From a virus: DNA of 64,000 nt. Location of the stretch: positions 16,882 through 80,881 of IMG/VR virus record IMGVR_UViG_3300005529_000001, one strand, 5' to 3'. Position numbers and translations under genes: made by a program. This document shows positions 4,955 to 35,006 of this stretch, piece by piece; within the stretch, counting starts at the first letter, position 1, and every line of letters begins with the position of its first letter. The notes below the pieces were generated by a model, which saw only the letters and a list, made by a program, of their open reading frames with translations, did no database searches and was not told the origin of the DNA.

Positions 4955-5823
4955 GTCGCCTGCAACGCCTTGGTGAACCGTTGCTTGAACAGCTTCGCCG
5001 CTCGAGCCCCGATCGCCTTGCGTGCCTCCTTGGAGTCAACGATCTCACCCGCGGCTTCACGGGTGACATCCTCTACCATTGCTGCGATGACCTGACCTGT
5101 CGATTCCATGCCGATGCCCTGGGGCAGCTTGTCAAGGACGTGTTCAAGCCTGGTCTCAGTGACCCACTCAAGAGCGATGGCCTCAGCCTCCTGGAGGACT
5201 TGCAGCTTCCCGGGATCCTCGACCTTACGGGTGGTGTTTGTCTCCCGTTCTTCGTCGCGCTTGTGCTTGGCGATGACACGTTCACCGTTGTTCTGCTTGA
5301 ACTCGACCAACGGTCGCAGGACGACGCCTTCACGGGGCTGATCACCCTCGACACCGTTGCGTCGTGCCTGTTCGGACGGGGCATCACGTTCAACGTTCAA
5401 CGCCTCGATCTCCGCGGGCACCCGCCTCCAGTGAACGAACTCGAGCCCAAGCCGACGAGAGACCTGCTCAGCGTTGGGAACGTCGAGCCAGCAATCGCCG
5501 ATCTTGACGTCAAAAGCCACGAACTTGAGTTCCTTGCCGTAGCGCCATGACTGAGCTTGCTGCTTGCCACCGTAGGCTTCGCCGAAGATGACGACTTCCA
5601 TCGCACCCAGCTCGGCCATGCCTACTGCGAGCGCTTCAGCATCGAACAGCTTGACGAAGTTGTCGTGTTTCTCGCCACCCGAGAAGAAGTGAAGCTGTCC
5701 TTCCTTGAACGAGATGTGCGCGGACGTGCCATGGATCTTCTCAAGCGCGTAGACCTCCCGGAAAAGGAAGATCATCGCCTGTGATTCAGGTCGGTACAAG
5801 TTCTGGATGTGCAAGTATCCCAT
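4951..5823 (-). CDS. RNA ligase, Rnl2-like nucleotidyltransferase
   Basis: motif I EKIHGTS (adenylated Lys), motif III VIFGEAYG, motif IV EGVVLRP, motif V VIAKHK. Confidence 0.75.
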   Translation of the reverse strand: MGYLHIQNLYRPESQAMIFLFREVYALEKIHGTSAHISFKEGQLHFFSGGEKHDNFVKLFDAEALAVGMAELGAMEVVIFGEAYGGKQQAQSWRYGKELKFVAFDVKIGDCWLDVPNAEQVSRRLGLEFVHWRRVPAEIEALNVERDAPSEQARRNGVEGDQPREGVVLRPLVEFKQNNGERVIAKHKRDEERETNTTRKVEDPGKLQVLQEAEAIALEWVTETRLEHVLDKLPQGIGMESTGQVIAAMVEDVTREAAGEIVDSKEARKAIGARAAKLFKQRFTKALQAT

Positions 5824-7357: not shown

Positions 7358-8377
7358 TCACTTGTTCTCCTGTGGATCGCCGCAGCAGCGACCGCCCGTT
7401 TCATACCACCCAAAGTACTCGTAGTGCCCGTCTGTCATGGCTCGACACTGGTTGCGAACGCCAAAGACGTGGCCTGACATCAGGCCTGAACGAAACGGAG
7501 CTCGCGGTGAGTGTTCCGGGATGGCGGTGTTGTTGATGAACTCGTCGATGTTGCCAACCATATCATAGACGCCCCATGGGCTTGCACACTCGGGCTTGGA
7601 ACCCGCCGGTGTCAAGAGGTTGTCGAGGATCGTGGTGACGCGGTCATGCGGGCGTTTGGAATCGAAAACGCTGATCTCATAGCGCTTGCCCGTTTGCGGG
7701 TTGATCGGTTTTTCGGGGTCTTCGGGAAACGGGTTGTCAATGTTGCACGCCGATTCATCGCGGCTGTAACCCGGGTGCTCGCCGTGCCCCGCGTAGGGAT
7801 AGGGTTGCATATCGGGACCCTCACAAGCGAACGTCCACTCTTCCTTGGTACAGAGCCGCTTGCCTTGGGCTTCACAAGCGTGCTTGACATCGTACCATGT
7901 CATCCACGACTGGGGCCGTTGGCCCTCAACGTTGGGGTACTCGTACTTGTCAACGCAGTAGTGCTTGTGAGGCCTCTTAGCCTCTGGGGTCAGGCACTTT
8001 GTCGGGTACTGGAACTCCCCACACCGGCCCGTTGGGTATTTCTCGAGGCTCTTGGGAGGGTCTACGGTGTTGCCCTGGGCATCGACCCATCGCAAGCAGA
8101 CTTCCTGGTCGTTGGGGCAGTACGTCCCGTCAATCTCAACCATGTCAGCCGGACACATCGATCGCTCCAGCTTATCATGGCAGTTGGTGCAAGTCCCTTC
8201 GATAAACTCGCCACCCGGGTGTCGCCATCCCCCGTCATTGCTAACTCGCTGGACACCAGCAGGTGAAGCGGAGACTGCTTGGCCTGAAAAGGCCGTCATT
8301 TTCGTGACTGTCTTGTTAGAACACGCGACTACAACTGCAGTGCACGCGACCAGCGACACCGCCCAGCGCCTTCTCAT
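7358..8377 (-). CDS. FGE-sulfatase (SUMF1) domain lipoprotein
   Basis: signal peptide with lipobox VVACS; WGVYDMVGNIDEF matches the GxYDMxGN(V)xEW core of formylglycine-generating-enzyme domains; Cys-rich. Confidence 0.6.
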   Translation of the reverse strand: MRRRWAVSLVACTAVVVACSNKTVTKMTAFSGQAVSASPAGVQRVSNDGGWRHPGGEFIEGTCTNCHDKLERSMCPADMVEIDGTYCPNDQEVCLRWVDAQGNTVDPPKSLEKYPTGRCGEFQYPTKCLTPEAKRPHKHYCVDKYEYPNVEGQRPQSWMTWYDVKHACEAQGKRLCTKEEWTFACEGPDMQPYPYAGHGEHPGYSRDESACNIDNPFPEDPEKPINPQTGKRYEISVFDSKRPHDRVTTILDNLLTPAGSKPECASPWGVYDMVGNIDEFINNTAIPEHSPRAPFRSGLMSGHVFGVRNQCRAMTDGHYEYFGWYETGGRCCGDPQENK

Positions 8378-8684: not shown

Positions 8685-8890
8685 CCTTTGATTCCATGGG
8701 GACGTTCGGTGTCTATCGCATAGTCTAGGTTCCGGCGAAGCTCGCTCAGGGCAGCCCGTGCGTTCGCATTAGGAACCGCCGCGTCGGGGACCCAGGCCAG
8801 CGCCGCCTTCAGTTGCTGTGCTTCCTCCACCGACATGTGGACGAACAGCTGCGGGCTGCGGGTCCAAGGGTTCTGGACGTGTGTCTTCAT
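8672..8890 (-). CDS. hypothetical protein
   Basis: 72 aa; ATGTGA-type overlap with ligase stop. Confidence 0.35.
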   Translation of the reverse strand: MKTHVQNPWTRSPQLFVHMSVEEAQQLKAALAWVPDAAVPNANARAALSELRRNLDYAIDTERPHGIKGCMP

Positions 8891-10320
8891 CAGTCCTCGC
8901 TCTTGTCTCGGGAGACCGCGGCGATGCGTTCGGCTTGTTCGGCAACACTAAGGCTCTTCCACCACTTCCACGTGGCGGGCACCGACTTGTCAACGTCGGC
9001 GTTGTCACGGACCCGGGTGTAGACCGGGAACCGCATCTTGCCGTCCTTCGTCAGCCCGTCCTCAGTGAGGGGATCGGGCTGAGCTTCGCACTCGGCGTTC
9101 TTGCCATTCCAGCTGTCAGCGCCCTCGGCTTGGATCTGAGCGCGGAGAGCATCGTTGAAGCCTCCCCCCACCCGGGTGATGATCTTGTTGGGAAGGACGA
9201 CGTAGAAACCACCGAACTGTCCTTCACGTTTGGTGCCCCGGCGGCCCTCGTAATTGCCGACGATGACGCCCTCGTAAGTGACGACCGGCTTCAGCTTCAG
9301 GATGTTCTTGGAACGCTTCCACTCGTAGGGGGTGTGCATCGTCTTTAGCATCACGCCCTCGTATCCCTCGTCCATGCACCTGGAGAAGTACTGTTTGAGG
9401 ACGTCTTCCTGGAAAGCCATGATGTAAGGAACCTGACGGATTGGTGACGTCTTTTCCTGCTCGAACTCGACACAGGCGAGGACAACCTCTCGGACGAGGT
9501 CGGCGCGCTCAGCGTAGGTCAGCTTCGTCTCCTGAGCTGCCCAGTCGGAGAACGGCATCGCGTCGAACACGTTGTAGTACATGTTCGAGTCGTCTTTCTG
9601 GTCTTCTTTGTGGACCCGGCCCGACATCATGACGCTGGATGACTCGTTCCAGTCAGCCGCCATCCCCTCACCGTCGAGGACGATATCATCGAGCTTCATC
9701 GCCTCTAACGTCGCGCGGATGCGGGGGAGCGACGGGAGCTCGGTGCCGTTGCGGGTGAACAGAGTCACCTTGCCACCGCGCTTGATGGCGATCAAGCGCA
9801 AGCCATCAAGCTTCGGCTCGACACGGACGGGATACGTTACCTTCTCGAGGATCTTGATGCCTTCGCCCTTGACGAACTCGCTCTTCAACGTCTTGGCCAG
9901 AGCGACCTCGAAGCTCTTGATGAGATCGGGCCACACTTCGTTGACAGTTGATTCCTGGACGCCGCAACGAAGATTTTTAAGAAGGATACGCTGGCACCAC
10001 TTCTGTTGGACTTCCGTCGCGCCACTCATGAGCGTCACGACGTAATCCTTGGCTGCGTTTCCCGTCAGGGTTCGGGTCGCAAGCATGCCGGTTATGCCGT
10101 CAAGAAACCTCTCGAGAACCCCATCATCGTTGAGAGGTTTGTTCGTCGGTTTTGGCATCTTGAACTTGGTGACGTAGTAGACCGTGTACGGGTCCTGGGC
10201 CGCGACGAACACCCTTTTCAGGAGTTCGTTCTTGCGAGCTGCTTCCAGGATGTCGATCTTGGCGAGCTTGCCTGAGGTGCTCTCGAGCTCTTCGAGGATG
10301 TCGATGACCGTTCGTGCCAT
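8890..10320 (-). CDS. ATP-dependent DNA ligase
   Basis: motif I EPKLDGLR (KxDG), EGVMLK, LKLK motif V, OB-fold-like C-terminus. Confidence 0.85.
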   Translation of the reverse strand: MARTVIDILEELESTSGKLAKIDILEAARKNELLKRVFVAAQDPYTVYYVTKFKMPKPTNKPLNDDGVLERFLDGITGMLATRTLTGNAAKDYVVTLMSGATEVQQKWCQRILLKNLRCGVQESTVNEVWPDLIKSFEVALAKTLKSEFVKGEGIKILEKVTYPVRVEPKLDGLRLIAIKRGGKVTLFTRNGTELPSLPRIRATLEAMKLDDIVLDGEGMAADWNESSSVMMSGRVHKEDQKDDSNMYYNVFDAMPFSDWAAQETKLTYAERADLVREVVLACVEFEQEKTSPIRQVPYIMAFQEDVLKQYFSRCMDEGYEGVMLKTMHTPYEWKRSKNILKLKPVVTYEGVIVGNYEGRRGTKREGQFGGFYVVLPNKIITRVGGGFNDALRAQIQAEGADSWNGKNAECEAQPDPLTEDGLTKDGKMRFPVYTRVRDNADVDKSVPATWKWWKSLSVAEQAERIAAVSRDKSED

Positions 10321-13046: not shown

Positions 13047-14255
13047 CTACTTCTTGGCCCCCTTGTCCTTGGCGGGTGCCTTGAAGATGCCGGGGATGTT
13101 CGGGATGATCCCGATCCCTGCCTCACCCATCGGGACGCCGAAGACATCGAGGATGTCCTTGGCACAGTACTTGTGGATGCTCTTGGCGAGCCCGATCTTG
13201 TCGATGCCGTGAGCTGTCAGCTTCGACCACAGCGAGATACGGTGCTCTTCGCCCAGCTCCCGCATGATGGCGGTGATGTTCTTGCCCTGCTGCTCGCTCA
13301 GCGTCTCCACGTTCTTGAAGACGTGGTCGCTGACCTTCTCGATGAGACCGTTGCGCTTCTCGTGCGACTGCTTGTCGAACTTGGCTTTGACTGAAGCGGT
13401 GTGGAAACGGTCGACCAGGTCCTCACCCGTTAGGTTGGTGTCGATGTTCTTGCAGTAGTCTCGGAACGCCGACGCTGCGTCGTTGCCGACGAAGACTCGG
13501 ACGATGTTCCAGAAGCGGGGGTCGAGTGGCTTCTCGCTGAGTCCCGCAGCAACCAGCGACTCGTTGACAAACTCCCAACCGCGAGGGGATGGCTGCTGGG
13601 TGTTCGGGTCAGCGCCCTTGGCCGGGTACAGCCAGATGTCTCGCTGCTCGACGAAGTCCGGGATGAAGTAGTGGAGGTTACCACCCTGCTCGGGGTCAGT
13701 GTTCCGTGCCCAGCTGCAAAACTCGGCGGGGGTGACCATCAGGTCCACGACCGCCAGTCGTGACAGCAGCGCCGGATCGATCTCGTTGACCTGGTACTGG
13801 GCGCCGGTGTTGATCGCGGCGTAGACCCTCGACAACGGGTGAAGCTTGTGACCGTTGAGCTCGTGGTCCAGGACGATCTGGAACGAAGCTTGCATGACCT
13901 CGGTCGTGCCTCGGTTCAGCTCGTCGAGGAAGATGACGTGAGGCTCGTCACACGCCATCATGTACCAGTCAGGCGGGTTGAACCTGGTGACGCGGCCGTC
14001 GGTGCTGGGCAAGCCGATCAGGTCGCCCTCACTCATCTGGCCGAGGCGGCGGTCAATGACCTGGTAACCGCCCTCCTTGATGAGGCCTTGCTCGAGGAGC
14101 TGCTTGCGGATGATAGCGCTGACCTGCCTGACAGACTGGCTCTTGCCCCTGCCGTGGTCTGCGCGGAGAAGCACTGACCGTCTGGCGGGCAGCAAGGCTG
14201 CCGTCTCCTTGAAGGTCGTCATTGACATCGTCGTCTCGGAACCGGTGCTTGCCAT
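13047..14255 (-). CDS. AAA+ ATPase, MoxR/CobS-like (AAA_5)
   Basis: P-loop HGRGKSQ, Walker B plus sensor VIFLDELNRGTTEVMQASFQIVLD typical of MoxR/CobS ATPases. Confidence 0.8.
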   Translation of the reverse strand: MASTGSETTMSMTTFKETAALLPARRSVLLRADHGRGKSQSVRQVSAIIRKQLLEQGLIKEGGYQVIDRRLGQMSEGDLIGLPSTDGRVTRFNPPDWYMMACDEPHVIFLDELNRGTTEVMQASFQIVLDHELNGHKLHPLSRVYAAINTGAQYQVNEIDPALLSRLAVVDLMVTPAEFCSWARNTDPEQGGNLHYFIPDFVEQRDIWLYPAKGADPNTQQPSPRGWEFVNESLVAAGLSEKPLDPRFWNIVRVFVGNDAASAFRDYCKNIDTNLTGEDLVDRFHTASVKAKFDKQSHEKRNGLIEKVSDHVFKNVETLSEQQGKNITAIMRELGEEHRISLWSKLTAHGIDKIGLAKSIHKYCAKDILDVFGVPMGEAGIGIIPNIPGIFKAPAKDKGAKK

Positions 14256-17828: not shown

Positions 17829-18011
17829 TCAGCCCAACACCTTGTGCTTCTTGATGTCGCTCAGCGCTCGTGCAACATCAAGCGCCATCGTCATCTGCCC
17901 CTGCGCTTTCCCGCTGATGACGGAAGAGCACAGAGCGTCGGCCGTCCGCAGAGCGGCTTTGAGCAAGACAAGCTGGGTCTCATCCAGAGTGATCGTCACT
18001 GACTTCGCCAT
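17829..18011 (-). CDS. hypothetical small protein
   Basis: 60 aa, preceded by variant of the recurrent promoter motif. Confidence 0.3.
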   Translation of the reverse strand: MAKSVTITLDETQLVLLKAALRTADALCSSVISGKAQGQMTMALDVARALSDIKKHKVLG

Positions 18012-18037
18012 AAGATTTCTCCTGGTTCCAGAGCAGC

Positions 18038-18067
18038 AACCTACATCTACGTTCCGTTAGCTTTCAC
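18038..18067 (-). promoter_or_regulatory. variant of recurrent promoter-like motif
   Basis: plus-strand ctacatctacgttccgttagctttcac; coding-strand GTGAAAG...GTAGATGTAG upstream of 17829..18011. Confidence 0.3.
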
Positions 18068-18083
18068 AAAAGACTTTGTCGGT

Positions 18084-18281
18084 TCATCCTGGGTGAACCA
18101 ACTCGAGGTGATGCTTGGACATCGAGTGACACATCCCCTCGTGGAAAACCACGACGTGGTCAGCCTTGGGAGACCGACGGACGATGTGAACAACCGTGTC
18201 CTTCGGGATCGTTCCCGATGGCTTCAGGTGTTCGACCACGTCCCATAGCTGGGTGGTCAATCTTGCGCGAGCTTTAAACAT
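18084..18281 (-). CDS. hypothetical small protein
   Basis: 65 aa. Confidence 0.3.
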   Translation of the reverse strand: MFKARARLTTQLWDVVEHLKPSGTIPKDTVVHIVRRSPKADHVVVFHEGMCHSMSKHHLELVHPG

Positions 18282-18291
18282 TTTTGTGACT

Positions 18292-18693
18292 TTACTCTTT
18301 GTTGTTCTTGGGTTTCACTGCCGGGATTCCCCCACATTTGATAGGGCAATACCTCTCGAATTCGCCCGTGCGGTCCTTCAAAGTCCGCCAGAGCCCAGTC
18401 GGTGGGTCAAAATCCCAGATGACATCAGCACTAAACGTAACCTCAGTGCCGAATGGTTTGGGCTTAAATTCGCCGCCTGTTACACTTGCGGTCTGCTTGT
18501 GACGGATGCAGACCACGTGAACCAGACCATCGGAATCAACATGCACATACCCCCGTGGGATTGCTAACGTGTTGAACGTGTCAATATGATCGACGACGCT
18601 CCTACGAACGGCGGCTTCGTCAGCTCTCAACGTTTCCTTGATCTTCCGGATGAGAAAGCCTAAAGCCCGCGCTTTCTTAACGTTGGGTATCAC
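18292..18693 (-). CDS. hypothetical protein
   Basis: 133 aa, GTG start. Confidence 0.4.
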   Translation of the reverse strand: MIPNVKKARALGFLIRKIKETLRADEAAVRRSVVDHIDTFNTLAIPRGYVHVDSDGLVHVVCIRHKQTASVTGGEFKPKPFGTEVTFSADVIWDFDPPTGLWRTLKDRTGEFERYCPIKCGGIPAVKPKNNKE

Positions 18694-18730
18694 CGAGACA
18701 ACCTACCATTGTTCACGGTTAGGGTTGCAC

Positions 18731-18804
18731 TGGTTGGGGCGGAGGGATTCGAACCCCCGTAAGCTGATTCAAAGTCAGCGGTCCTGCCGTTGGACGACAC
18801 CCCA
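18731..18804 (-). tRNA. tRNA-Gln (anticodon TTG)
   Basis: hand-folded cloverleaf; U1:A72 and 3-bp D stem typical of bacterial tRNA-Gln; T-loop GGTTCGAATCC; CCA encoded. Confidence 0.6.
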
Positions 18805-18832
18805 ATAGAGAGTAACAAGCTGCGTTCCGTGT

Positions 18833-18904
18833 TGGTTGCTCCGACTGGACTCGAACCAGTGGCCCCCGCTCCATGGTAACGGGTGTCCGCCGATATGCGG
18901 AGCA
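18833..18904 (-). tRNA. tRNA-like, anticodon undetermined
   Basis: good T arm (ACTGG/TTCGAGT/CCAGT) and acceptor stem with CCA, but D and anticodon arms do not fold canonically. Confidence 0.3.
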
Positions 18905-18911
18905 ATGCGTC

Positions 18912-19003
18912 ATGTCGAACGGAATCGAACCGTTGCCCGGGTAGCAGCCGCGAGCCTTCACAGGATTCTGTGTTTTTCCCAGTGCTTTCCTCGAACGACA
19001 TGA
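18912..19003 (-). tRNA. long tRNA-like element (type II-like, about 92 nt), undetermined
   Basis: acceptor CATGTCG/CGACATG and T arm AACGG/TTCGATT/CCGTT; internal arms unresolved. Confidence 0.25.
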
Positions 19004-19005
19004 CT

Positions 19006-19080
19006 TGGCAGGGGCGCAGGGACTCGAACCCTGGTAGCGAGTTTTGGAGGCTCGCGTCCTAGCCGCTGAACGACACCCCT
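19006..19080 (-). tRNA. tRNA-Trp (CCA)
   Basis: anticodon loop CTCCAAA; all four arms fold; CCA encoded. Confidence 0.6.
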
Positions 19081-19176
19081 GTAAAAAGCGCTGGTACATG
19101 GGACAACTTGCGTTGATCAGACGTATTGGTTGTTAGTCAGTCTTCCGACAACACTCACCATGTTTGCCAGCTACGG

Positions 19177-19249
19177 CACCGTCGACGGGAATCGAACCCG
19201 CATTTCCTGGTAGACAGCCAAGCGACCTAATCCATTGATCGACGACGGT
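19177..19249 (-). tRNA. tRNA-Asp (GTC)
   Basis: anticodon loop CTGTCTA; canonical arms; pyrimidine at 37 is unusual. Confidence 0.5.
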
Positions 19250-19332
19250 ATTGTATCGCTGTGAGAAGCTACCAACTCCTCGCGAGGCGGTGGGGCTCCC
19301 TTGCGCTGGGCGCCCATGTTACCTTGCAGCGA

Positions 19333-19406
19333 TGGCGGTCCCGAGGAGAATCGAACTCCCGTAATACGCTAGACAGGCGTACGTCCTACCACTGAACGAC
19401 GAGACC
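19333..19406 (-). tRNA. tRNA-Asp (GTC), second copy
   Basis: anticodon loop CTGTCTA with perfect TACGC/GCGTA stem; CCA encoded. Confidence 0.5.
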
Positions 19407-19494
19407 ATTGGCTCCTCGTTTACCTCGGCGCTTGCCGCGCGTTCTGGTGTACAGACCATGTTGGCATGGTATCGGACCTGGACTTGTTCCGGAG

Positions 19495-19566
19495 TGGAGC
19501 TCACGGGATTTGAACCCGTAACTTCCAGCTTGCAAAGCTGGCACTCTCCCGTTGAGTTAGAGCCCC
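19495..19566 (-). tRNA. tRNA-Ala (TGC)
   Basis: G3:U70 identity pair, A73, anticodon loop TTTGCAA. Confidence 0.65.
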
Positions 19567-19567
19567 G

Positions 19568-19649
19568 TGGAGCAGGAGGGGATCGGACCCTCAATCACGC
19601 AGCCTCCGCTGGCGAGCGGCCTTACCGAGTGACCATCCATTGCTGCCCC
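19568..19649 (-). tRNA. tRNA-like 82 nt with Ala-type acceptor (G3:U70, A73); anticodon undetermined
   Basis: acceptor GGGGCAG/CTGCTCC, T arm GAGGG/TCCGATC/CCCTC; middle does not fold as standard type I. Confidence 0.3.
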
Positions 19650-19773
19650 GTTGCAGCGTCGGTGGGTTACGTAGCAAATTGCATTCTATAGACGAGGAAC
19701 TTCAATGATAGAATTGCCACCGAGCCTAGCACTTCACCTTCTTGTCGGTCCTCTGCGACTGGTTACCGTGCAG

Positions 19774-19846
19774 TGGAGCACGCGGGACTCGAACCCGCCA
19801 CCTCAACGTTGCGAACGTTGCGCTCTCCCAGATGAGCTAGTGCCCC
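19774..19846 (-). tRNA. tRNA-Ala (CGC)
   Basis: G3:U70, A73, perfect anticodon stem CAACG/CGTTG, loop TTCGCAA. Confidence 0.65.
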
Positions 19847-19899
19847 GAAAACTCCGGCATGGTGACTGCTCTCGCAGACGATCCCGGAGGGATTATGGT

Positions 19900-19975
19900 T
19901 GGCAGCGGGGGATGGAGTTGGACCACCATTTCCAAGCCTTAGACGCCTGGCGACTTGCTGTTAGTCGACCCCGCT
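19900..19975 (-). tRNA. putative suppressor tRNA (anticodon CTA, amber)
   Basis: acceptor AGCGGGG/CCCCGCT plus G73 and encoded CCA; D stem GACT/AGTC; anticodon stem CCAGGC/GCTTGG (6 bp incl. G-U) with 7-nt loop GTCTAAG giving U33 and anticodon CUA; T loop TCCAACT non-canonical. Confidence 0.4.
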
Positions 19976-19976
19976 G

Positions 19977-20049
19977 TGGAGCTAGCGGGATTCGAACCCG
20001 CCACCTTCTGCATGCCATGCAGACGCTCTCCCAAATGAGCTATAGCCCC
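19977..20049 (-). tRNA. tRNA-Ala (GGC)
   Basis: G3:U70, A73, anticodon stem TCTGC/GCAGA, loop ATGGCAT. Confidence 0.65.
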
Positions 20050-20175
20050 GTGTGCCGGCGGTTACTCTGAGTCTTCACCTTCAGGTTTGCAGCAAAGCAC
20101 GATGAAACACGCACGCTGTGTGAATGCATATCGTAGTTGGTCGCTGGTCCTCCTATCCGCGCCGGCGGATCGGAT

Positions 20176-20250
20176 GGTGATCCTGGTGGGACTCGAACCC
20201 ACGAGTTTCTGCGAGTCATGCAGACGATCTGGCCGCTGATCTACAGGATC
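20176..20250 (-). tRNA. tRNA-Val (GAC)
   Basis: anticodon loop ATGACTC, perfect stems, CCA encoded. Confidence 0.55.
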
Positions 20251-20305
20251 GTGGCCGGTCTCTCCCGGCGGTCATAGCGGACGATGTGGTCCGCACGTTT
20301 TGTCT

Positions 20306-20503
20306 TTACCTTTCCTTCCGCTTGTTGCGGTACTGCCGTCGCCAACAGGGCCGGCACATGTATGCCATCCCCGCGAGCTGTGCAGCGATTTGACACCACT
20401 TACACATTCCGCGCCTCCTTTCGTATGAACGAAAGTGGCTACGGAGGTCTTGAATGATCCATGCAGTGACACCTCTTGTTTGGCAAGGTTTGGTTGCGGA
20501 CAC
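20306..20503 (-). CDS. small Cys-rich protein between tRNAs
   Basis: CKWCQ...CRPC motif; overlaps 3' end of adjacent tRNA by a few nt. Confidence 0.3.
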   Translation of the reverse strand: MSATKPCQTRGVTAWIIQDLRSHFRSYERRRGMCKWCQIAAQLAGMAYMCRPCWRRQYRNKRKER

Positions 20504-20567
20504 CAGGAGTCGAACCTAGCTGTTGCTGGGTTATGGGCCCAGCGTGTAAGCCGTTTCACTCGTCCGC
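20495..20567 (-). tRNA. tRNA-Met/Ile2-type (CAT)
   Basis: anticodon loop CCCATAA (C33 unusual) in perfect CTGGG/CCCAG stem; 3-bp D stem. Confidence 0.45.
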
Positions 20568-20569
20568 AG

Positions 20570-20642
20570 TGGGTCCGGAGGGCAATGATCCCACACGCTT
20601 CCGGTTAAAAGCCGGCTGCTCTGCCAATTGAGCTACGGACCC
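20570..20642 (-). tRNA. tRNA-Lys (TTT)
   Basis: anticodon loop CTTTTAA, perfect acceptor GGGTCCG/CGGACCC, D stem GCTC/GAGC; T loop ATCATTG non-canonical. Confidence 0.5.
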
Positions 20643-20652
20643 GTATTACATC

Positions 20653-20724
20653 GTTCACCTGCCAGGATTCGAACCTCCATGTCCGGCTTGAAAGGCCAGC
20701 ATCCTACCATTAGATGACGAGACC
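20653..20724 (-). pseudogene. tRNA-Glu(TTC)-like with non-pairing acceptor stem (probable tRNA pseudogene)
   Basis: anticodon arm CTGGC/CTTTCAA/GCCGG and D arm fold, T loop TTCGAAT present, but 5' GGTCTCG cannot pair with 3' CAGGTGA. Confidence 0.3.
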
Positions 20725-20753
20725 TTGCGATCTCGGGGTAAGTGGTTACTTGA

Positions 20754-20827
20754 TGGAGCCCAAGGCTGGAGTTGAACCAACGACCTCCCGGTTATTTACC
20801 GGTTGCTCTACACTGAGCTACTTGGGC
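20754..20827 (-). tRNA. tRNA, anticodon undetermined (loop TAAATAA lacks U33)
   Basis: acceptor GCCCAAG/CTTGGGC, D stem GCTC/GAGC, T arm GTTGG/TTCAACT/CCAGC, CCA encoded. Confidence 0.4.
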
Positions 20828-20828
20828 A

Positions 20829-20900
20829 TGGTGGAAAGGGCTGGACTCGTCCAGCACTTCCGGGTCAAGAACCCGGCGCTCTGCATTGAGCTACCTCTCC
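20829..20900 (-). tRNA. tRNA-Lys (CTT)-like with degenerate 6-nt T loop
   Basis: acceptor GGAGAGG/CCTTTCC, CCA encoded, perfect anticodon arm CCGGG/TTCTTGA/CCCGG; T loop ACGAGT. Confidence 0.35.
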
Positions 20901-21002
20901 GTGCTTGAATTCTATACATCGCCGGGCGTCGCCTGTTCACCTACACCAGATTCATAGTCTGGGTAACCGCGCTTCCGCGGCATGGGTTACTGGGCTTCGC
21001 AG

Positions 21003-21075
21003 CCTCTCTGTCCGGACTCGAACCGGAAGTCTCTACCTTCGCAGGGTAGCATGTTTTCCATTACACCACAGAGAG
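21003..21075 (-). tRNA. tRNA-Arg (GCG)
   Basis: anticodon loop CTGCGAA in CTACC/GGTAG stem; T loop TTCGAGT; 5' end overlaps last codons of CDS 21061..21537. Confidence 0.55.
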
Positions 21076-21537
21076 ATAATCGTTGAAATATTTGATGCCC
21101 TTTCGCTGGCCGTTCTTGGGTGGATCAAATCGAAGTGAGAAGCTTGTTGTGTGACCCTCGATCTCACTCATCGACACATATGCTACGACCTTTCGATCGA
21201 TGACATACAGTGCCATGTAGTCGATGTTTCGTGTTGTATATCGCAACCCGCTGCGACGGTTCGTGAAGTGTGACAGGCAGACCGTCCCTTTCTTGGATGA
21301 TTTCACTGTCTTCGCTTGAAGTTTGACAACTTGATTTTCTTTCACAGCGATGATGTCAATGTGACTGACGTCGCCATAGGGAAAGAAGACATCGTAACCT
21401 TGGTTCACTAGATCACTTGCAATTGCAAGTTCTCCTACGTTGCCTGTTGCTTTGGTGACCGACAGCATGATGCTATCGTAACGTGTCATCGTTGGACGTT
21501 CACATTCACGCTTCACTGGCGTCCCTGCACCGTGCAT
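21061..21537 (-). CDS. hypothetical protein, possible PD-(D/E)XK-type nuclease embedded in tRNA array
   Basis: 158 aa; GDVSHIDIIAVKEN...VKLQAK resembles D-x(n)-(D/E)xK nuclease core; location analogous to homing endonucleases in phage tRNA regions. Confidence 0.35.
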   Translation of the reverse strand: MHGAGTPVKRECERPTMTRYDSIMLSVTKATGNVGELAIASDLVNQGYDVFFPYGDVSHIDIIAVKENQVVKLQAKTVKSSKKGTVCLSHFTNRRSGLRYTTRNIDYMALYVIDRKVVAYVSMSEIEGHTTSFSLRFDPPKNGQRKGIKYFNDYLSVV

Positions 21538-21565
21538 CTAGGGGAATGTACGCGCCGAAACGCAG

Positions 21566-21621
21566 TCCCCCAGGTGGGAATTGAACCCACTCAAGTTTGA
21601 GCAGTTACTTGTCACGACGAG
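21566..21621 (-). pseudogene. tRNA 3' fragment (T arm plus 3' acceptor strand only)
   Basis: GTGGG/TTCAATT/CCCAC T arm followed by CTGGGGG-A but no matching 5' half within reach of next tRNA. Confidence 0.2.
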
Positions 21622-21695
21622 TGGGTCCAGTGGGAGTCGAACCCACATCTCTCTGCTTAAGAGGCAGGACTCTGAGCCAGTTGAGTTATGGACCC
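21622..21695 (-). tRNA. tRNA-Lys (CTT)
   Basis: acceptor GGGTCCA/TGGACCC, D stem ACTC/GAGT, anticodon loop CTCTTAA. Confidence 0.45.
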
Positions 21696-21747
21696 TTTGG
21701 CCAGGTGATGTCTGCTGAGAACGAGCGCCTGGCACGCTGCCGTCTCA

Positions 21748-21823
21748 TGGTTGGGGTGGCAGGACTCGAACCTGCGTATCGTAGGGTCAGAACCTACTGC
21801 TGTTGCCACTGAGCCACACCCCA
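21748..21823 (-). tRNA. tRNA-Gln (CTG)
   Basis: U1:A72, 3-bp D stem, perfect anticodon arm GTAGG/TTCTGAC/CCTAC, CCA encoded. Confidence 0.6.
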
Positions 21824-21824
21824 G

Positions 21825-21897
21825 CTGCTCGAGCAGGGATCGAACCTGCGATGGGCTAGTTAACAGCTAGCTGCCTTACCAACTTGGCTATCGAGCA
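21825..21897 (-). tRNA. tRNA-Asn (GTT)
   Basis: U1:A72 as in bacterial tRNA-Asn; anticodon arm GCTAG/CTGTTAA/CTAGC. Confidence 0.6.
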
Positions 21898-21961
21898 ATG
21901 GCGGTGACGGTCGCTTCGGCTAGGCCCAGATTCGGGCTGTCGGTCCACGAACAGTCACCAG

Positions 21962-22032
21962 CTCCAGCGGAGGGAATCGAACCCCCGTCGTCTCGGGAAA
22001 CAGCCGAGCGCACGCCATCGTGCTCCACTGGA
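21962..22032 (-). tRNA. tRNA-Asn (GTT)-like, second copy
   Basis: anticodon arm CTCGG/CTGTTTC/CCGAG; U1:A72; pyrimidine at 37. Confidence 0.4.
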
Positions 22033-22084
22033 AAACGGAACGCAGATTGTCAAAGATCAACTGAAAGCTTGCGCTGTCAGTCGG

Positions 22085-22167
22085 TGCGGCGTCAGGGAGT
22101 CGAACCCCGCGGGCCAAAAGGCACCTGGGTTACAGCCAGGTCCATCTCCGTAGTGGTCTACCACCGC
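22085..22167 (-). tRNA. tRNA-Tyr (GTA), long variable arm
   Basis: anticodon arm CCTGG/CTGTAAC/CCAGG; extra arm GCC-TTTT-GGC; 83 nt; acceptor 6 of 7 bp. Confidence 0.5.
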
Positions 22168-22382
22168 ATGTTATGTCGTGTGCTTAAACGTCGTTTGCCG
22201 AGGAACTTTCTCTTCCTCGGCAACTCTGAGTGGCTTCTCTTACCCCTCTTCATCGCTCCGGAAGCTCGGAGCAATGGGCGCTCCGATCAAATCGTGGTCT
22301 TATCGTTGGCATATGCCTGCCAACGCTTCTGATTCGCTTTGTTGATTTGGGCTTGGGTATTCATGATCGTCTTTCGACTTCG

Positions 22383-22457
22383 TCGGACCGAGTGGAATTG
22401 AACCACCGACCTCCTGCTTATCAGACAAGCGCTCTAAACCAACTGAGCTACGGTCCG
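22383..22457 (-). tRNA. tRNA-Ile (GAT)
   Basis: anticodon loop CTGATAA and GAGGTCGGTGGTTCAATTCCAC closely resemble bacterial tRNA-Ile. Confidence 0.6.
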
Positions 22458-22519
22458 GAGAACTACGAACGGCATTGCCGTTGCAGTACGGATACTCTAT
22501 CCAGCCCCGAGAGCCTGTT

Positions 22520-22849
22520 TCACACTTTTTCGCACTTTTTTCGTCCATGTGTCTTGCGATTCTTCCACCCATACGTGGGGGTCTGGGCGTGGCAGTTCGG
22601 ACAGAGAAAGCGGAGGTTCTCCGGGAGCTGGTTCGTGTTGTCACCATCGATGTGATCGACTGGCAATGTGAGGGGCTTGCCGTTGTGGACAGGTTCCTGT
22701 CCGCACTCCGCACACACGTATCGTCGACCGATCTCAAGGAGAAGCTGCTTCAAGTTGCAGGGCTTCGGTCGCCCCCGCAGCAAGATCTTCTCAGGTGTCT
22801 TCCGCCTCATGCCCTTGTTCCAAGCTGCACCCATCCGTCGATGGTACAA
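22520..22849 (-). CDS. HNH endonuclease
   Basis: CAECG...HIDGDNTNxxxxNLRFLCPNCH HNH signature. Confidence 0.75.
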   Translation of the reverse strand: MYHRRMGAAWNKGMRRKTPEKILLRGRPKPCNLKQLLLEIGRRYVCAECGQEPVHNGKPLTLPVDHIDGDNTNQLPENLRFLCPNCHAQTPTYGWKNRKTHGRKKCEKV

Positions 22850-23031
22850 GGAAGGTGTCGACGAGGACCAGCGAGCAGTCGCACAGGGTCTCGAAGATGA
22901 TCGGCTGCGAGAACATCACCTTGACCCGCTCTTCGCAGCCGAGATGCCCCTCCCTCGGGTAATCAACCCCGATGACCAAAGCAAAATGCGAGTGTTCCCT
23001 GTCGTTGTGCCGGGAGAACTCGATGACCAGG

Positions 23032-23472
23032 TCACCCGGCTTCAGGTCTTTGTGGGAGGCCACGATCTGAAATTACACCCGTCGTCAGCACCTCGATCCA
23101 GTTGTAGCGAGCCCAGAAGTGTCCCTTCCGGAACATGATGCAATACCACAGATCCTCAGTGACATCAGAAAGACGTGGTTTCGTTTTCTTGCTGTCAAAG
23201 ATTGGATCAATCCGAGCACGCATCAGCTCTAGGTGCGAAATGTGGTAACGGTGATCCAACACTAGTCCAACGCCAGCTTCGTCCATCGTCACCCCACGTT
23301 CTTCTGGAAACGGATATGGGCGGGCGATCTCAGTCTCGAGCTCGTCATAGAGGTTGACGCCACGATATATGCACTTGACAGCTGTCCCGTGTGGGATGGG
23401 AACTTCATGCCCGCACCGCGTGATGGTCACCGCTAACAGGTGATCGACTTCTTCACGCTTTTCTCTGAGCAT
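23032..23472 (-). CDS. hypothetical protein
   Basis: 146 aa. Confidence 0.4.
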   Translation of the reverse strand: MLREKREEVDHLLAVTITRCGHEVPIPHGTAVKCIYRGVNLYDELETEIARPYPFPEERGVTMDEAGVGLVLDHRYHISHLELMRARIDPIFDSKKTKPRLSDVTEDLWYCIMFRKGHFWARYNWIEVLTTGVISDRGLPQRPEAG

Positions 23473-32987: not shown

Positions 32988-33383
32988 TCACCGGTTCAGG
33001 TTATTGACAATCTCGCCGACAAGCTCGGCGGGCTCAATTTCTACCGTCAAGTGCTGCACCTCGACATTGAACACATCTCGGCACATGCCCATCTCATAGC
33101 CGAGGTCATGGATTTTGCGTGCGTGGAGCATGTCGTTGATGTTGTCCTGCAATTCGCTGATCATGTCGGGCGGAAATCGCGACAAGTCTAAACGATCGAG
33201 CCGTTCGTCAATCTCCCGACGAGTCGCGTCGATCATACCATCAACAGAAGCAAACGCTCGAGCTGAGGTGCCCTCGATCAATTCGCCTTCGTATCCAGTC
33301 TCAATGCCCCGGATAACCAAGAGGTAGACGTACGCCATGGCACCATCATACTCCGTCCCAATTAGCGCGCGAGCTCTTTCCAC
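32988..33383 (-). CDS. hypothetical protein
   Basis: 131 aa. Confidence 0.4.
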   Translation of the reverse strand: MERARALIGTEYDGAMAYVYLLVIRGIETGYEGELIEGTSARAFASVDGMIDATRREIDERLDRLDLSRFPPDMISELQDNINDMLHARKIHDLGYEMGMCRDVFNVEVQHLTVEIEPAELVGEIVNNLNR

Positions 33384-34093
33384 CGGGTCTCAAGAAATCG
33401 AGCGTAAGGCAATCCCGCGAGACCGTAAGAGCCAACAGCGTACGCGTCTGTCGCCTCGACCAGCAACGTCTCACCCTGCGCGGTGACGCCCATGTCGAGG
33501 CAGAACGCAGCATTCATCTTGCCCTTGCAACACTTGAGTGCTTTGTTATAGGTGCTCTTGTTGAGCGAGGTGAACGCGTCACCGCGGTAGTGCCGGACGC
33601 CGACGGGCTGGTCGTGCTTGAAGAAGCAACGGTATTCGCTCACAAACTCGATCTCATCGCTGACAAAGCAGGGAGTCTCTTCCGGGTATGCAGCAACCGC
33701 AAGCCTCGATCGCGGGTCAAGCGGATCAAAGACGAAACCCCCGAACAGCTTCTGTTGGACGGGCTTGACGAACTTGCGAGCGACAAGGCTCCTGACTCCT
33801 GCCAACGTCATGCGCTCGATCTTCCGTCCCAACATCCAGTCGAGGTGTTCGGGATAATCAACGGGTGTTGGCACCGGTTTGCCTAGCAACTTCAATGCAT
33901 CCCAGACGTCACCCAGGTTGCCGCAGACGATGACACTCGGGCCGAGGTCAGGCATGTTCTCAAGGTTCAGGTCACCGAACCCGTAGAACGGGACCACAGG
34001 GATCCCCTGGATGTGGAAGCCCTCGGCCGCAGCATAGGTGTTGGCGTTGTCCGGGATGTTCTCACGGAAACGGATGTAAGCCTTGTCAAGCAT
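33362..34093 (-). CDS. ATP-grasp-like protein
   Basis: 243 aa; EIEFVSEYRCFF resembles ATP-grasp E-x-EYR segment; low confidence without search. Confidence 0.35.
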   Translation of the reverse strand: MLDKAYIRFRENIPDNANTYAAAEGFHIQGIPVVPFYGFGDLNLENMPDLGPSVIVCGNLGDVWDALKLLGKPVPTPVDYPEHLDWMLGRKIERMTLAGVRSLVARKFVKPVQQKLFGGFVFDPLDPRSRLAVAAYPEETPCFVSDEIEFVSEYRCFFKHDQPVGVRHYRGDAFTSLNKSTYNKALKCCKGKMNAAFCLDMGVTAQGETLLVEATDAYAVGSYGLAGLPYARFLETRWKELAR

Positions 34094-35006
34094 TTGCGTG
34101 CTGCTCCACGAGCTTCAAACCCTCAGCGACATAGTAATCAACAGGCTGGTCTTTCTGAAGGAGACCCGCCTTCATCATCTCTTCCAACTCGTCTCTGACC
34201 GCGTTGCACCACGACCCAGGTTTGGTCGCCACCTTCGACAAGATGATTCCCATCGTGCCCTTCGGCAGCTTGGGCGAGTTGTCATCAGCGTAGACCTGCT
34301 TGACCCTGACTTCTAGTTCAGCAGCACGAGCGAGTGCCCGAGCGCGCTTGTCAGGACGCTTGGTCGTCAGGTCAGCGCGGGACAGCGCCATCAGCCTCTC
34401 AAAGTTGCGGACGTCACCGATGTCGACGAGCAGTCTCCTGACCCCTGAGTCACCCCACGACTTCTTGTAAGCCGCGGGTCGGAGGTGGTTCAGCACCAGA
34501 GCCCTGACGGTCGTGAACAAGCTGTGGTCGTTTCTGAACAGGTCAAGCCGGTGATCGATGCGATCCAACATCCTTGCCCCGACAACGTCATGCTGGTGGA
34601 ACGTCACCCGACCATTGACGAATGCACGCGTCCGAGCCTTGCCGATGTCATGCATCAACGCGCCCCATCGCAGTTCAAGCTGAGGTGGCACCCCAGCGAC
34701 GACCTGCTTGGTGTGATCCCAAACGTCCTTGTGAAGTGCCGAACGCGGGTCTTCACCCAAACCCTTCATCTCCCCGATCTCGGGGAATAACGCTTCGAGA
34801 CAGCCCGTCTTCAGCAACAGCTCAAGCCCATCAGCTGGGCGTGAGCCGCAGAGGATCTGATCAAGGAGCTTGCGGACGGTCAGCGGGTTGCGACGCCACA
34901 GGTCTTCGAACTCACCGGGAGAAAAGACTCGTGGGACAAACAAATCATCAGGAGCGCCCGTGTTGGAGCCCCTAACACACAACTCTAGGAGTTCGATCGG
35001 ATCCAT
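34086..35006 (-). CDS. HD-domain phosphohydrolase (Cca C-terminal-like)
   Basis: LHKDVWDH...GALMHDIGKA HD motif arrangement as in CCA-enzyme HD domain; no nucleotidyltransferase head. Confidence 0.65.
   Translation of the reverse strand: MDPIELLELCVRGSNTGAPDDLFVPRVFSPGEFEDLWRRNPLTVRKLLDQILCGSRPADGLELLLKTGCLEALFPEIGEMKGLGEDPRSALHKDVWDHTKQVVAGVPPQLELRWGALMHDIGKARTRAFVNGRVTFHQHDVVGARMLDRIDHRLDLFRNDHSLFTTVRALVLNHLRPAAYKKSWGDSGVRRLLVDIGDVRNFERLMALSRADLTTKRPDKRARALARAAELEVRVKQVYADDNSPKLPKGTMGIILSKVATKPGSWCNAVRDELEEMMKAGLLQKDQPVDYYVAEGLKLVEQHANA

Follow-up and report, generated by a model that had tools for sequence, protein, structure and literature searches.

The subject of this analysis is a compact array of transfer RNA (tRNA) genes at positions 18731-22457 of a 64,000-nucleotide (nt) stretch of viral DNA, namely positions 16,882 to 80,881 of the IMG/VR record IMGVR_UViG_3300005529_000001 (hereinafter the window, to which all coordinates refer unless another locus is named). 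ARAGORN predicted 20 tRNA genes in the whole window, every one on the minus strand and all within 18731-22457; none was detected by this program in the other 60 kilobases (kb). An Rfam scan of positions 18000-23200 produced 18 matches to RF00005 above the gathering score (34-69 bits, E-values down to 4e-14), among them a gene at 20832-20900 that ARAGORN missed and whose anticodon we read as CTT (Lys); the type II tRNA-Tyr and a tRNA with the anticodon CTA were detected by ARAGORN only. Four further tRNA-like elements (20654-20720, 19567-19649, 18907-19005 and 18833-18906) retain a canonical T-arm and an acceptor-type stem but not the other parts of a tRNA; the first of these is a sub-threshold RF00005 match (26.9 bits, with a gathering score of 29). 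The 18 Rfam matches, the Tyr and CTA tRNAs and the four conserved tRNA-like elements give a total of 24. The region is a phage tRNA gene cluster that consists of about two dozen tRNA and tRNA-like genes, with mobile endonucleases, and includes the following features, given from the upstream to the downstream end (X0 to X3, A, B and AL denote non-canonical members).

22520-22849, minus strand: free-standing HNH endonuclease gene, 109 amino acids, at the upstream edge of the array (Pfam HNH, 8.5e-5; phrog_10822, 2.6e-26)
22382-22457, minus strand: tRNA-Ile(GAT) (ARAGORN; Rfam, 67.3 bits; loop CTGATAA identical in 5 phages)
22287-22364, minus strand: candidate micro-ORF of 25 amino acids (MNTQAQINKANQKRWQAYANDKTTI) between the Ile and Tyr genes, read from the sequence
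22083-22167, minus strand: tRNA-Tyr(GTA), type II, with a long variable arm (ARAGORN; in Rfam, a weak tRNA-Sec match only)
21961-22032, minus strand: tRNA-Asn(GTT) with the variant loop CTGTTTC (U37, C38) (ARAGORN; Rfam, 43.3 bits)
21824-21897, minus strand: tRNA-Asn(GTT) (ARAGORN; Rfam, 62.7 bits)
21748-21823, minus strand: tRNA-Gln(CTG), CCA encoded, abutting the Asn gene (ARAGORN; Rfam, 60.3 bits)
21621-21695, minus strand: tRNA-Lys(CTT) (ARAGORN; Rfam, 54.1 bits)
21574-21590, minus strand: isolated T-arm-like hairpin GTGGG TTCAATT CCCAC, not a whole tRNA (T-arm motif scan)
21061-21537, minus strand: PD-(D/E)XK endonuclease gene, I-Ssp6803I-like (PF11645 PDDEXK_5, 2.7e-21, 76.5 bits, cutoff 26.1)
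21002-21075, minus strand: tRNA-Arg(GCG) (ARAGORN; Rfam, 61.6 bits)
20829-20900, minus strand: X1, CUU, Lys-like, loop UUCUUGA, odd T-loop (Rfam, 58.4 bits; missed by ARAGORN)
20754-20827, minus strand: X2, loop UAAAUAA (A33), discriminator U, CCA encoded (ARAGORN, as 'Ile AAT'; Rfam, 53.2 bits)
20654-20720, minus strand: X3, degenerate tRNA-like element, loop CUUUCAA (UUC, read by hand), weak T-stem (Rfam, 26.9 bits)
20569-20642, minus strand: tRNA-Lys(TTT), canonical loop, unusual T-loop (ARAGORN; Rfam, 53.7 bits)
20491-20568, minus strand: non-canonical CAT tRNA (ARAGORN; Rfam, 34.1 bits)
20306-20407, minus strand: gene for a basic CxxC...CxxC peptide of 33 amino acids (MCKWCQIAAQLAGMAYMCRPCWRRQYRNKRKER) with an upstream GGAGG (gene call in locus L002)
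20175-20250, minus strand: tRNA-Val(GAC), loop AUGACUC (U37) (ARAGORN; Rfam, 57.5 bits)
19976-20049, minus strand: tRNA-Ala(GGC), G3:U70 (ARAGORN; Rfam, 64.4 bits)
19900-19975, minus strand: X0, anticodon CUA (ARAGORN, as 'Pyl'; no Rfam match)
19773-19846, minus strand: tRNA-Ala(CGC), G3:U70 (ARAGORN; Rfam, 59.5 bits)
19567-19649, minus strand: element AL, Ala-type tRNA-like RNA (relaxed ARAGORN, '?(Ala|Gly)'; in 5 phages)
19494-19566, minus strand: tRNA-Ala(TGC), G3:U70 (ARAGORN; Rfam, 69.2 bits)
19333-19406, minus strand: tRNA-Asp(GTC), loop CUGUCUA (U37) (ARAGORN; Rfam, 55.1 bits)
19175-19249, minus strand: tRNA-Asp(GTC), loop CUGUCUA (U37) (ARAGORN; Rfam, 51.7 bits)
19006-19080, minus strand: tRNA-Trp(CCA), canonical (ARAGORN; Rfam, 50.4 bits; loop CUCCAAA identical in 6 arrays)
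18907-19005, minus strand: element A, tRNA-like RNA (alignment of 10 loci; Rfam local tRNA match, 20.2 bits)
18833-18906, minus strand: element B, tRNA-like RNA with a reduced D-arm (Rfam local tRNA match, 20.1 bits)
18731-18804, minus strand: tRNA-Gln(TTG), the last gene of the array (ARAGORN; Rfam, 60.5 bits)

An earlier description of this DNA, made from its letters and open reading frames (ORFs) and referred to here as the sequence-only reading, had placed about 24 tRNA or tRNA-like genes in about 3.7 kb. This estimate stands, with 20 genes by ARAGORN, 18 by Rfam and 24 when the tRNA-like elements are counted, that is, the automated finders return about the number claimed and not far fewer. 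The genes are also co-oriented and tightly packed as described, with the minus strand used throughout and several genes abutting (zero-spacer junctions at 19975/19976, 20568/20569 and 21823/21824). All the isoacceptors that had been named were recovered: Gln(TTG) and Gln(CTG), Trp, two Asp, Ala(TGC), Ala(CGC) and Ala(GGC), Val, the CAT tRNA, Lys(TTT), two Lys(CTT), Arg, two Asn, Tyr and Ile(GAT). The genes denoted 'Met/Ile2' and the second Lys(CTT) are present, but both are non-canonical, and the list of tRNAs left out the CTA tRNA at 19900-19975. The hypervariable and other non-canonical members, the RNAs that keep only the acceptor and T-arm, and the fact that the array is half of a two-part set had been overlooked altogether. 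CCA is encoded by ten array members. A direct-repeat search found no segmental duplications or insertion-site repeats, the repeats recovered reflecting T-arm similarity only, and neither the ARAGORN search for transfer-messenger RNA (tmRNA) in the window nor Rfam gave a tmRNA match.

The window is identical to part of the 369,506-base pair (bp) ENA metagenome contig ERZ27279688 k141_1055159, and the same sequence recurs, over 12.7 kb with the array included, in a second assembly (Logan SRR5581483). Using the PD-(D/E)XK protein and a conserved 24-32-nt DNA word as queries, we identified nine further contigs with the same array, two from ENA, one from IMG/VR and six from JGI/NCBI metagenomes, four of these six being short partial fragments; eight or more related uncultured phages are represented. 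The related-contig loci compared below are denoted L003, L004, L006, L007 and L009-L011, and L017 denotes the window contig extended beyond window coordinate 1. The order of the array is kept throughout: Ile, Tyr, Asn, Asn, Gln, Lys, Lys, Arg, X1, X2, X3, Lys and CAT tRNAs, followed by the peptide gene, Val, Ala, X0, Ala, AL, Ala, Asp, Asp, Trp, A, B, Gln and Gln. The same gene order is found in L003, L006, L007, L010 and L011, where the flanking DNA is only 67-77% identical to the window. The content varies to some extent, with a canonical Met gene of L003 and a Gln(CTG) gene missing from the window and three to five Lys genes per array.

Among the canonical members, the anticodon is the same in every phage and the loops are almost the same (CTGATAA in Ile and CTCCAAA in Trp throughout). 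The Tyr orthologs in L003, L006, L007 and L010 are all 85 nt long and share the anticodon. ARAGORN draws a G:U pair at 3:70 in each of the three Ala tRNAs, as the sequence-only reading had it; G3:U70 is the identity element for alanyl-tRNA synthetase. Some deviations are also conserved. A purine at position 37 is the rule in tRNAs, but every Asp(GTC) tRNA of the six arrays has U37 (loop CUGUCUA or UUGUCUA), which is unusual, and Val(GAC) has U37 in four of the six arrays. The Asn tRNA at 21961-22032 differs from its L003 ortholog in a shortened D-arm and in U37 and C38, the L003 loop being the canonical CTGTTAA.

The array is interrupted and flanked by protein-coding genes, of which the nuclease-like ORF (21061-21537; PF11645, 2.7e-21) and the HNH endonuclease (22520-22849; Pfam HNH and phrog_10822) had both been correctly recognized. 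The HNH protein scores 23.1 bits with PF01844 (cutoff 21.4). Its gene appears as a clean insertion or deletion of about 320 nt relative to L003, with conserved sequence on both sides, has no tblastn match in any relative locus and is present only in the window phage. The PD-(D/E)XK ORF encodes 158 amino acids (151 in the database gene call, which starts 7 codons later), and its stop codon falls within tRNA-Arg at the 5' end, the overlap comprising the first 15 nt of the tRNA gene. It is found in L003 and L004 (75% amino acid identity) and in five small contigs (P0002, P0003, P0005, P0006 and P0007) but is absent, by tblastn, from L006, L007, L010 and L011; in L006, 135 nt separate the Lys and Arg genes. 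The ORF sits between Lys(CTT) and Arg(GCG), and no Rfam intron family was found, which does not indicate intron encoding. Given that the HNH gene occurs in no relative and the PD-(D/E)XK gene in a subset only, both look like mobile passengers of the homing endonuclease type, as judged from their distribution and family matches. The PD-(D/E)XK protein is similar, with low identity (E=0.0025), to PDB 2OST, the structure of I-Ssp6803I, the founding PD-(D/E)XK homing endonuclease. The gene of I-Ssp6803I resides in an intron of a cyanobacterial tRNA-fMet gene. The two thus share the PF11645 family and the association with tRNA genes, and the window gene is also polymorphic for presence and absence; I-Ssp6803I, however, is intron-encoded, whereas the window gene stands by itself between tRNA genes. 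The status of I-Ssp6803I as a homing endonuclease is established (PMC3384342). A statistical association of homing endonucleases with phage tRNA genes has been described (PMC13096335), and association with tRNA clusters is reported also in PMC2330249.

Unlike the nucleases, the gene for the 33-amino acid peptide appears to be a core part of the array, given its conservation in five relatives (66-87% identity by tblastn in L003, L004, L006, L010 and L011); the peptide has no Pfam or PHROG match. It corresponds to the Cys-rich small ORF of the sequence-only reading, which is real and best read as 33 amino acids at 20306-20407. The candidate micro-ORF has a counterpart in L003, a 25-codon ORF in the same position in whose alignment MNTQ...QKRWQ.YAN is conserved. 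The isolated hairpin at 21574-21590, upstream of the PD-(D/E)XK ORF, likewise has a covarying counterpart in the same place in L003 (GCCCG TCCGAAT CGGGC).

Several members of the array depart from canonical tRNAs in a different manner, namely by keeping the tRNA body while the anticodon loop changes. The loop of X1 is CUAAUAA, GAUUUAA, AAUUUGA or AGUUUAC in relatives, with a conserved tRNA body, and that of X2 is ACUAGUG (L003), UCGAAAG, CAUUUAG (twice) or UCUUUAG. In the cloverleaf aligned over ten X1 and X2 sequences, 95.7% of the cells are paired, 15 of the 21 pairs show changes on both sides and all five anticodon-stem pairs covary, pairing and covariation values that none of 500 shuffles matched. 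The loops all stay at 7 nt, many center on UUU, and U33 is absent from eight of the ten. Given a covarying body and loops that differ in almost every phage, selection thus keeps the shape of X1 and X2 and not the loop sequence, a pattern that could reflect either an arms race with anticodon nucleases or a non-decoding role. X0 and X3 behave similarly, with the body kept and the anticodon loop changing; the X3 slot is a relaxed ARAGORN Arg(tcg) in L006, and a different loop is read from the L003 alignment.

The CAT tRNA at 20491-20568 has the loop CCCAUAA (C33), an extra eighth acceptor pair and an encoded CCA, and the GGG/CCC adjoining its loop forms three G:C pairs, an initiator-like feature. 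It is kept in L003 with compensatory changes in the anticodon stem. A canonical Met(CAT) gene stands beside Lys(TTT) in L003 (10964-11038), L006 and L011; this gene is missing from the window phage array, and a canonical Met is present in the second array of the window phage described below.

X0 combines the loop GUCUAAG (U33, A37) with a 7-bp acceptor stem that has A1-U72, G73 and an encoded CCA; its D-loop lacks GG, its T-loop is UCCAACU and its sequence is identical in the second assembly. Orthologs in the same slot have the anticodon CCA in L003 and L011 (loop ACCCAAC, C33) and CUG in L006 (AUCUGUA). The acceptor is identical to that of L003 and L011, and compensatory changes are found in the D, anticodon and T stems among the orthologs. 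The shared slot, the identical acceptor, the CCA orthologs and the compensatory stem changes point to a common origin, so X0 derives from a second, non-canonical Trp-type tRNA.

Three other conserved RNAs, A, B and AL, lack the complete tRNA architecture. Element A consists of a 9-bp closing stem, an unpaired D-loop-like segment (UUCGAGGAAAG), a 6-bp inner stem and a canonical T-arm, with no anticodon loop and no encoded CCA; the inner stem encloses a core of 36 nt that shows no variation among 10 loci and holds a 5-bp hairpin. In the proposed structure, 98.3% of the cells are paired and 10 pairs show changes on both sides; none of 500 shuffles reached the observed pairing and slid controls gave 26-44%. 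A covariance model of this element, R1, scores 106-124 bits in the relatives. A cellular origin of element A was considered and rejected, the core being present in none of the bacterial genomes searched (one genome per species, 185,579 species) and Rfam at E<=10 giving local tRNA matches only; a 10-nt complementarity to the 530 loop of 16S ribosomal RNA is about at the chance level and partly overlaps the inner stem. The adjacent element B has a canonical acceptor and T-arm, the loop ACCAUGG (CAU, C33) and an encoded CCA; its ortholog is recognized by ARAGORN as Met(cat) in L006 and L009, and compensatory acceptor-stem changes are seen relative to L003. A 94-nt ARAGORN 'tRNA-???' prediction (18833-18926) was rejected as a single gene and resolves into the two adjacent elements, A and B. 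AL has a 7-bp acceptor with G3:U70 invariant in five phages, A73 and a T-arm, and one long central arm replaces the D and anticodon arms; RNAalifold yields 25 pairs, five with both-side changes, and pair 6:67 takes three types.

A rough gene model of the window includes 122 genes, nearly all on the minus strand, mostly small and without family matches. The proteins encoded in the flanks of the array include a sigma factor (phrog_351), a deoxynucleoside monophosphate (dNMP) kinase (phrog_139), an ATP-dependent DNA ligase (phrog_114), an Rnl2-like RNA ligase and an AAA ATPase, and one window protein shares 36-40% identity with proteins from T4-like Aeromonas phages and from the jumbo phage XacN1. 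No nucleotide similarity to deposited phages was found among 50,697 records, the 22-nt array core has no match in bacteria and archaea (one genome per species, 185,579 species), and a search of viral contigs with the dNMP kinase returned only an unrelated partial match, L001. Based on the replication and nucleotide metabolism genes and on the relatives, we conclude that the source is a very large (about 370 kb) uncultured bacteriophage. In the GC-richer part of the window, at about 40000-64000, the genes are still small, on the minus strand and without family matches, and no boundary feature was identified.

The same contig carries a second array of 22 tRNA genes on the same strand, outside the window at a distance of 1.7-6.8 kb from coordinate 1 (L017:13984-19049; contig positions about 143,066-148,131). 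It comprises two Glu, four Pro, Val(CAC), three Thr, two His, two Phe, Cys, Gly, four Leu, Arg(TCG) and Met. Jointly, the two arrays cover 19 amino acids with at least 41 tRNAs recognized by standard detectors, plus the CUA tRNA; no Ser tRNA was found in either array. The array tRNAs read the majority codons of the phage (shares within the amino acid: GAC 0.71, AAG 0.81, ATC 0.88, AAC 0.86, TAC 0.83, GTC 0.62, CAG 0.74; GC at third codon positions, 0.75). A bias toward tRNAs for NAN codons (Lys, Asn, Asp, Gln and Tyr), considered as evidence of an anti-nuclease function, was dropped as an artefact of one array that is gone when the second is included.

Taken together, these observations are most readily explained if the array is one of two tRNA clusters of an uncultured phage of about 370 kb that supply its translation, with the nucleases as mobile passengers, and we assign this interpretation a probability of roughly 85%. 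Broad supply of tRNAs for phage translation is the best-supported reading of the function in view of the near-complete two-array set, a pattern that resembles XacN1. Under this scheme, the array would be transcribed as long precursors, from which RNase P and 3'-processing enzymes of the host would cut out the RNAs at the acceptor/T-arm modules. Members without an encoded CCA would need a CCA-adding enzyme, and the canonical members would be charged by host aminoacyl-tRNA synthetases. Such a supply could sustain phage protein synthesis in the face of host tRNAs that are inadequate, have been shut down or are cleaved. The HNH and PD-(D/E)XK genes, whose products presumably have nuclease activity, would stand outside this function as insertions between tRNA genes, comparable to SegB in T4. 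Several points weigh against the supply interpretation. The codon comparison is one with phage codons alone; sigma-70 promoter and terminator scans were uninformative, with counts at or below the shuffled expectation; no phage structural or virion gene was found in the 64 kb of the window and the approximately 20 kb examined beyond it; and seven or eight non-canonical members (X0-X3, the C33 CAT tRNA, A, B and AL) are unexplained by a simple supply of decoding tRNAs.

It is these members that lend some appeal to counter-defence as the main driver of the array, a tentative alternative that overlaps the supply interpretation and that we consider possible although not probable. The array would replace or shield tRNAs cleaved by host immune nucleases (PrrC, PARIS AriB, retron or Septu effectors, VapC or colicin-like enzymes), and its odd members would act as isoacceptors that resist the nucleases or as decoys that do not decode. 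There are precedents: anticodon-loop variants of phage tRNAs have been proposed to evade nucleases (PMC10264068), T5 tRNA variants neutralize PARIS (PMC11464382, PMC12409363) and phage tRNAs evade retrons (PMC11555353). In the array itself, the cloverleaf is kept by covariation at four slots, where nearly every phage has a different 7-nt anticodon loop; the base missing from eight of the ten X1 and X2 loops, U33, is the one that adjoins the PrrC-type cut site; all Asp tRNAs of the clade carry U37; and Lys genes are multiple, from 3 to 5 per array. Also encoded in the window are the Rnl2-like RNA ligase and a relative of the C-terminal half of a CCA enzyme. However, the near-complete two-array set fits general supply, the amino acid bias disappears, and the hypervariability of the 7-nt loops could also signify a non-decoding role unrelated to defense.

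Such a role brings us to a narrower and still less likely proposal, namely that the clade maintains, next to its decoding tRNAs, non-decoding tRNA mimics that act as decoys, inhibitors or resistant substitutes in an arms race with host nucleases that target tRNAs, or as hijackers of tRNA-binding factors. The mimics would be X0-X3, in which covariation holds the body while the loop is rewritten in nearly all lineages and as a rule has no U33, and A, B and AL, each an acceptor/T-arm minihelix with one added arm; the CUA 'suppressor' would then be one state of a fast-evolving loop. A competing view of the same members, with the C33 CAT tRNA included, is that they are decaying duplicated pseudogenes that serve at most as processing punctuation. 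Their scores with standard detectors are low or nil, the T-stem of X3 is weak, the window copy of Asn has a shortened D-arm with U37 and C38 compared with L003, and gene content differs between phages. Decay is nevertheless quite unlikely when the stems of A, X1 and X2, and AL are held by both-side changes across DNA that is 67-77% identical, the 36-nt core of element A is identical in 10 loci, G3:U70 of AL is invariant and the hypervariable loops stay at 7 nt.

A switch of the genetic code, in which the CUA tRNA would serve as an amber suppressor for in-frame TAG codons in late genes, as in code-15 phages, has somewhat lower odds still. Suppressor tRNAs are typical of recoded phages (bioRxiv 10.1101/2021.08.26.457843; PMC9523058). 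X0 itself looks the part: CUA is presented in a 7-nt loop with U33 and A37, the cloverleaf is supported by compensatory changes relative to the orthologs, the gene is identical in two assemblies, and four loop positions differ from ACCCAAC, including C33 to U33, which looks like remodeling toward a working decoder. The coding sequences tell otherwise. TAG ends 10 of the 122 predicted genes of the window, including that of the well-supported AAA ATPase; a codon-score test in the window found two in-frame ORF pairs bridged by TAG, compared with three for TGA and four for TAA; and extensions past TAG are no shorter than those past the other stops. ORF lengths under stop read-through, bridged pairs and stop usage and extensions thus yield no signal of TAG recoding in the window, which does not include the late genes. 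Moreover, the CUA state is lineage-specific, close relatives having CCA or CUG at this slot.

Directly after the second tRNA array, the contig encodes a release factor homolog of 196 amino acids (L017:19644-20234) that scores 180 bits with prfA (domains 2-4 only), 116 with prfB and 85 with prfH and fits release factor 1 (RF1) better than PrfH or ArfB. It has the GGQ motif and PPT where RF1 has PxT, lacks domain 1 and is not of the RF2 type. RF1 reads UAG, and a truncated factor with a PxT-type motif, if it acts as its sequence implies, would favor termination at UAG, the opposite of what reassignment of TAG needs. The negative TAG tests in the window and the RF1-like factor together make the code switch unlikely. 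Immediately upstream of the RF1-like gene, a 168-amino acid ORF (L017:19090-19596) contains HCDAGLSRS, which reads as the Cys-based phosphatase signature HCxxGxxRS; this ORF has no NCBIfam match.

Finally, a host chromosomal tRNA operon, or a prophage integrated beside one, could be suspected from the rise of GC from about 0.56-0.59 to 0.60-0.67 beyond 40 kb of the window and from the lack of virion genes in the sequence examined, but is highly improbable. The genes on both sides are of phage type, with no housekeeping genes among them, and the flanks and the high-GC part hold small co-oriented ORFs that match PHROGs or nothing. The array pattern occurs in no bacterial genome searched (one genome each, 185,579 species), and in the relatives, which are metagenomic or viral contigs, the array is surrounded by the same phage genes.

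Beyond the arrays, the window encodes several proteins that touch on RNA metabolism and translation. The Rnl2-like RNA ligase (4951-5823, minus strand; PF09414, 2.6e-15), which could serve RNA repair, and the ATP-dependent DNA ligase (8890-10320, minus strand) lie between the two tRNA arrays. A protein with a ribosomal L7/L12 C-terminal domain (Pfam, 4.8e-13) and a GNAT acetyltransferase form a pair 1.6 kb apart (37962-38426 and 40018-40638, minus strand) and represent further translation-related phage genes. An R2K-clade ATP-grasp protein (33362-34093, minus strand) overlaps an HD-domain protein (34086-35006, minus strand) that matches only the C-terminal half of the actinobacterial-type CCA tRNA nucleotidyltransferase (142 bits); no nucleotidyltransferase head domain was identified near it. 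In addition, a 491-amino acid protein with weak similarity to the DUF2201 metallopeptidase-like family (phrog_1314; 806-2281, minus strand) and an AAA_5 ATPase (phrog_1297; 13047-14255, minus strand) resemble, in our judgment, the CobT/CobS-like pair common in large phages, and an FGE-sulfatase (formylglycine-generating enzyme-like) domain protein (7358-8377, minus strand; Pfam, 3.6e-12) is not what would be expected in a region of phage replication genes.

Ever since T4 and T5, phage tRNA clusters have been known to harbor homing endonucleases, and in this respect the core finding is ordinary for a jumbo phage. What the array adds is a well-documented case from a clade of very large, uncultured phages without a deposited relative, in which comparison separates members with invariant loops, members with constrained bodies and free loops, and tRNA-like RNAs that are conserved yet unable to decode. 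Concrete, testable oddities are the conserved mimics, the loops that are hypervariable and the slot that alternates between CCA, CUA and CUG.

The likeness to phage T4 noted in the sequence-only reading is apt. The T4 cluster (GenBank X03016) includes 8 tRNAs and has the order tRNAs, ORF5, tRNA-Arg, species 2 RNA and species 1 RNA. In both phages, the tRNA genes are co-oriented and a free-standing endonuclease gene lies directly upstream of tRNA-Arg; the window array is three times larger, and its nucleases belong to the HNH and PD-(D/E)XK families as opposed to GIY-YIG in T4. ORF5 is presumably segB, an identification of our own that is not in the X03016 record. The T4 SegB protein is a proven homing endonuclease (PMC2330249), and the T4 species 1 and 2 RNAs (rnaC and rnaD) are small stable RNAs, with a function not yet known, that are encoded distally in the cluster (PMC9697503). 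These RNAs end in a T-arm and closing stem and are comparable in position to elements A and B, which come after Trp close to the 3' end of the array; in the alignment to the R1 model, species 1 has an 8-bp stem and a T-arm. In T4, R1 scores 25.1 bits (E about 1.7e-4 in 144 kb); no true tRNA searched exceeds 20.7 bits. In other Tevenvirinae, it scores 13.3 bits in L016 and has no match at E<=1 at the rnaC homolog in L014 and L015. The T4 match was not reproduced in these related phages, so that homology of element A to species 1 RNA is not established and only an analogy is claimed.

The odd members have partial counterparts elsewhere. AL resembles the tRNA-like domain of tmRNA, a class that includes the tmRNAs of tRNA-rich phages, in its G3:U70 acceptor, A73, T-arm, unpaired D-loop analog and single long helix, but measures only about 80 nt and has neither a tag reading frame nor pseudoknots. 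The nuclease-evading phage tRNAs, such as the T5 Lys, Thr and Asn variants, are similar in that the anticodon loop or stem is changed while the body is kept, several being of the Lys type. The T5 variants, however, are point changes, whereas here sister phages differ in their loops, from which U33 or even the anticodon identity is often lost. If X0-X3 and A, B and AL counter tRNA-cleaving immunity, tRNA-based counter-defense would extend from point variants to dedicated mimics. X0 is like the suppressor tRNAs of code-15 phages in having a CUA anticodon within a phage tRNA array; the differences are that the window has no in-frame TAG signal and that the factor here is RF1-like, not RF2-like. 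The amber suppressor su+7 of Escherichia coli arose from tRNA-Trp by a change of the middle anticodon base. A1-U72 and G73 are Trp identity elements, and X0, which has both and derives from a Trp-type tRNA, has taken the same route through a change of the middle base. The series CCA, CUA and CUG at this slot is a natural example of a redundant tRNA that changes its reading, even into that of a stop codon.

In overall organization, the window phage can be compared with the Xanthomonas phage XacN1, which has a genome of 384,670 bp with 56 tRNA genes (PMC5852040). The relationship is very remote, with one window protein that is 36% identical to an XacN1 protein, but the two phages share the size class of about 370 kb and a large tRNA set, which in XacN1 is located in the terminal repeats and in the window phage is divided between two internal arrays about 20 kb apart.

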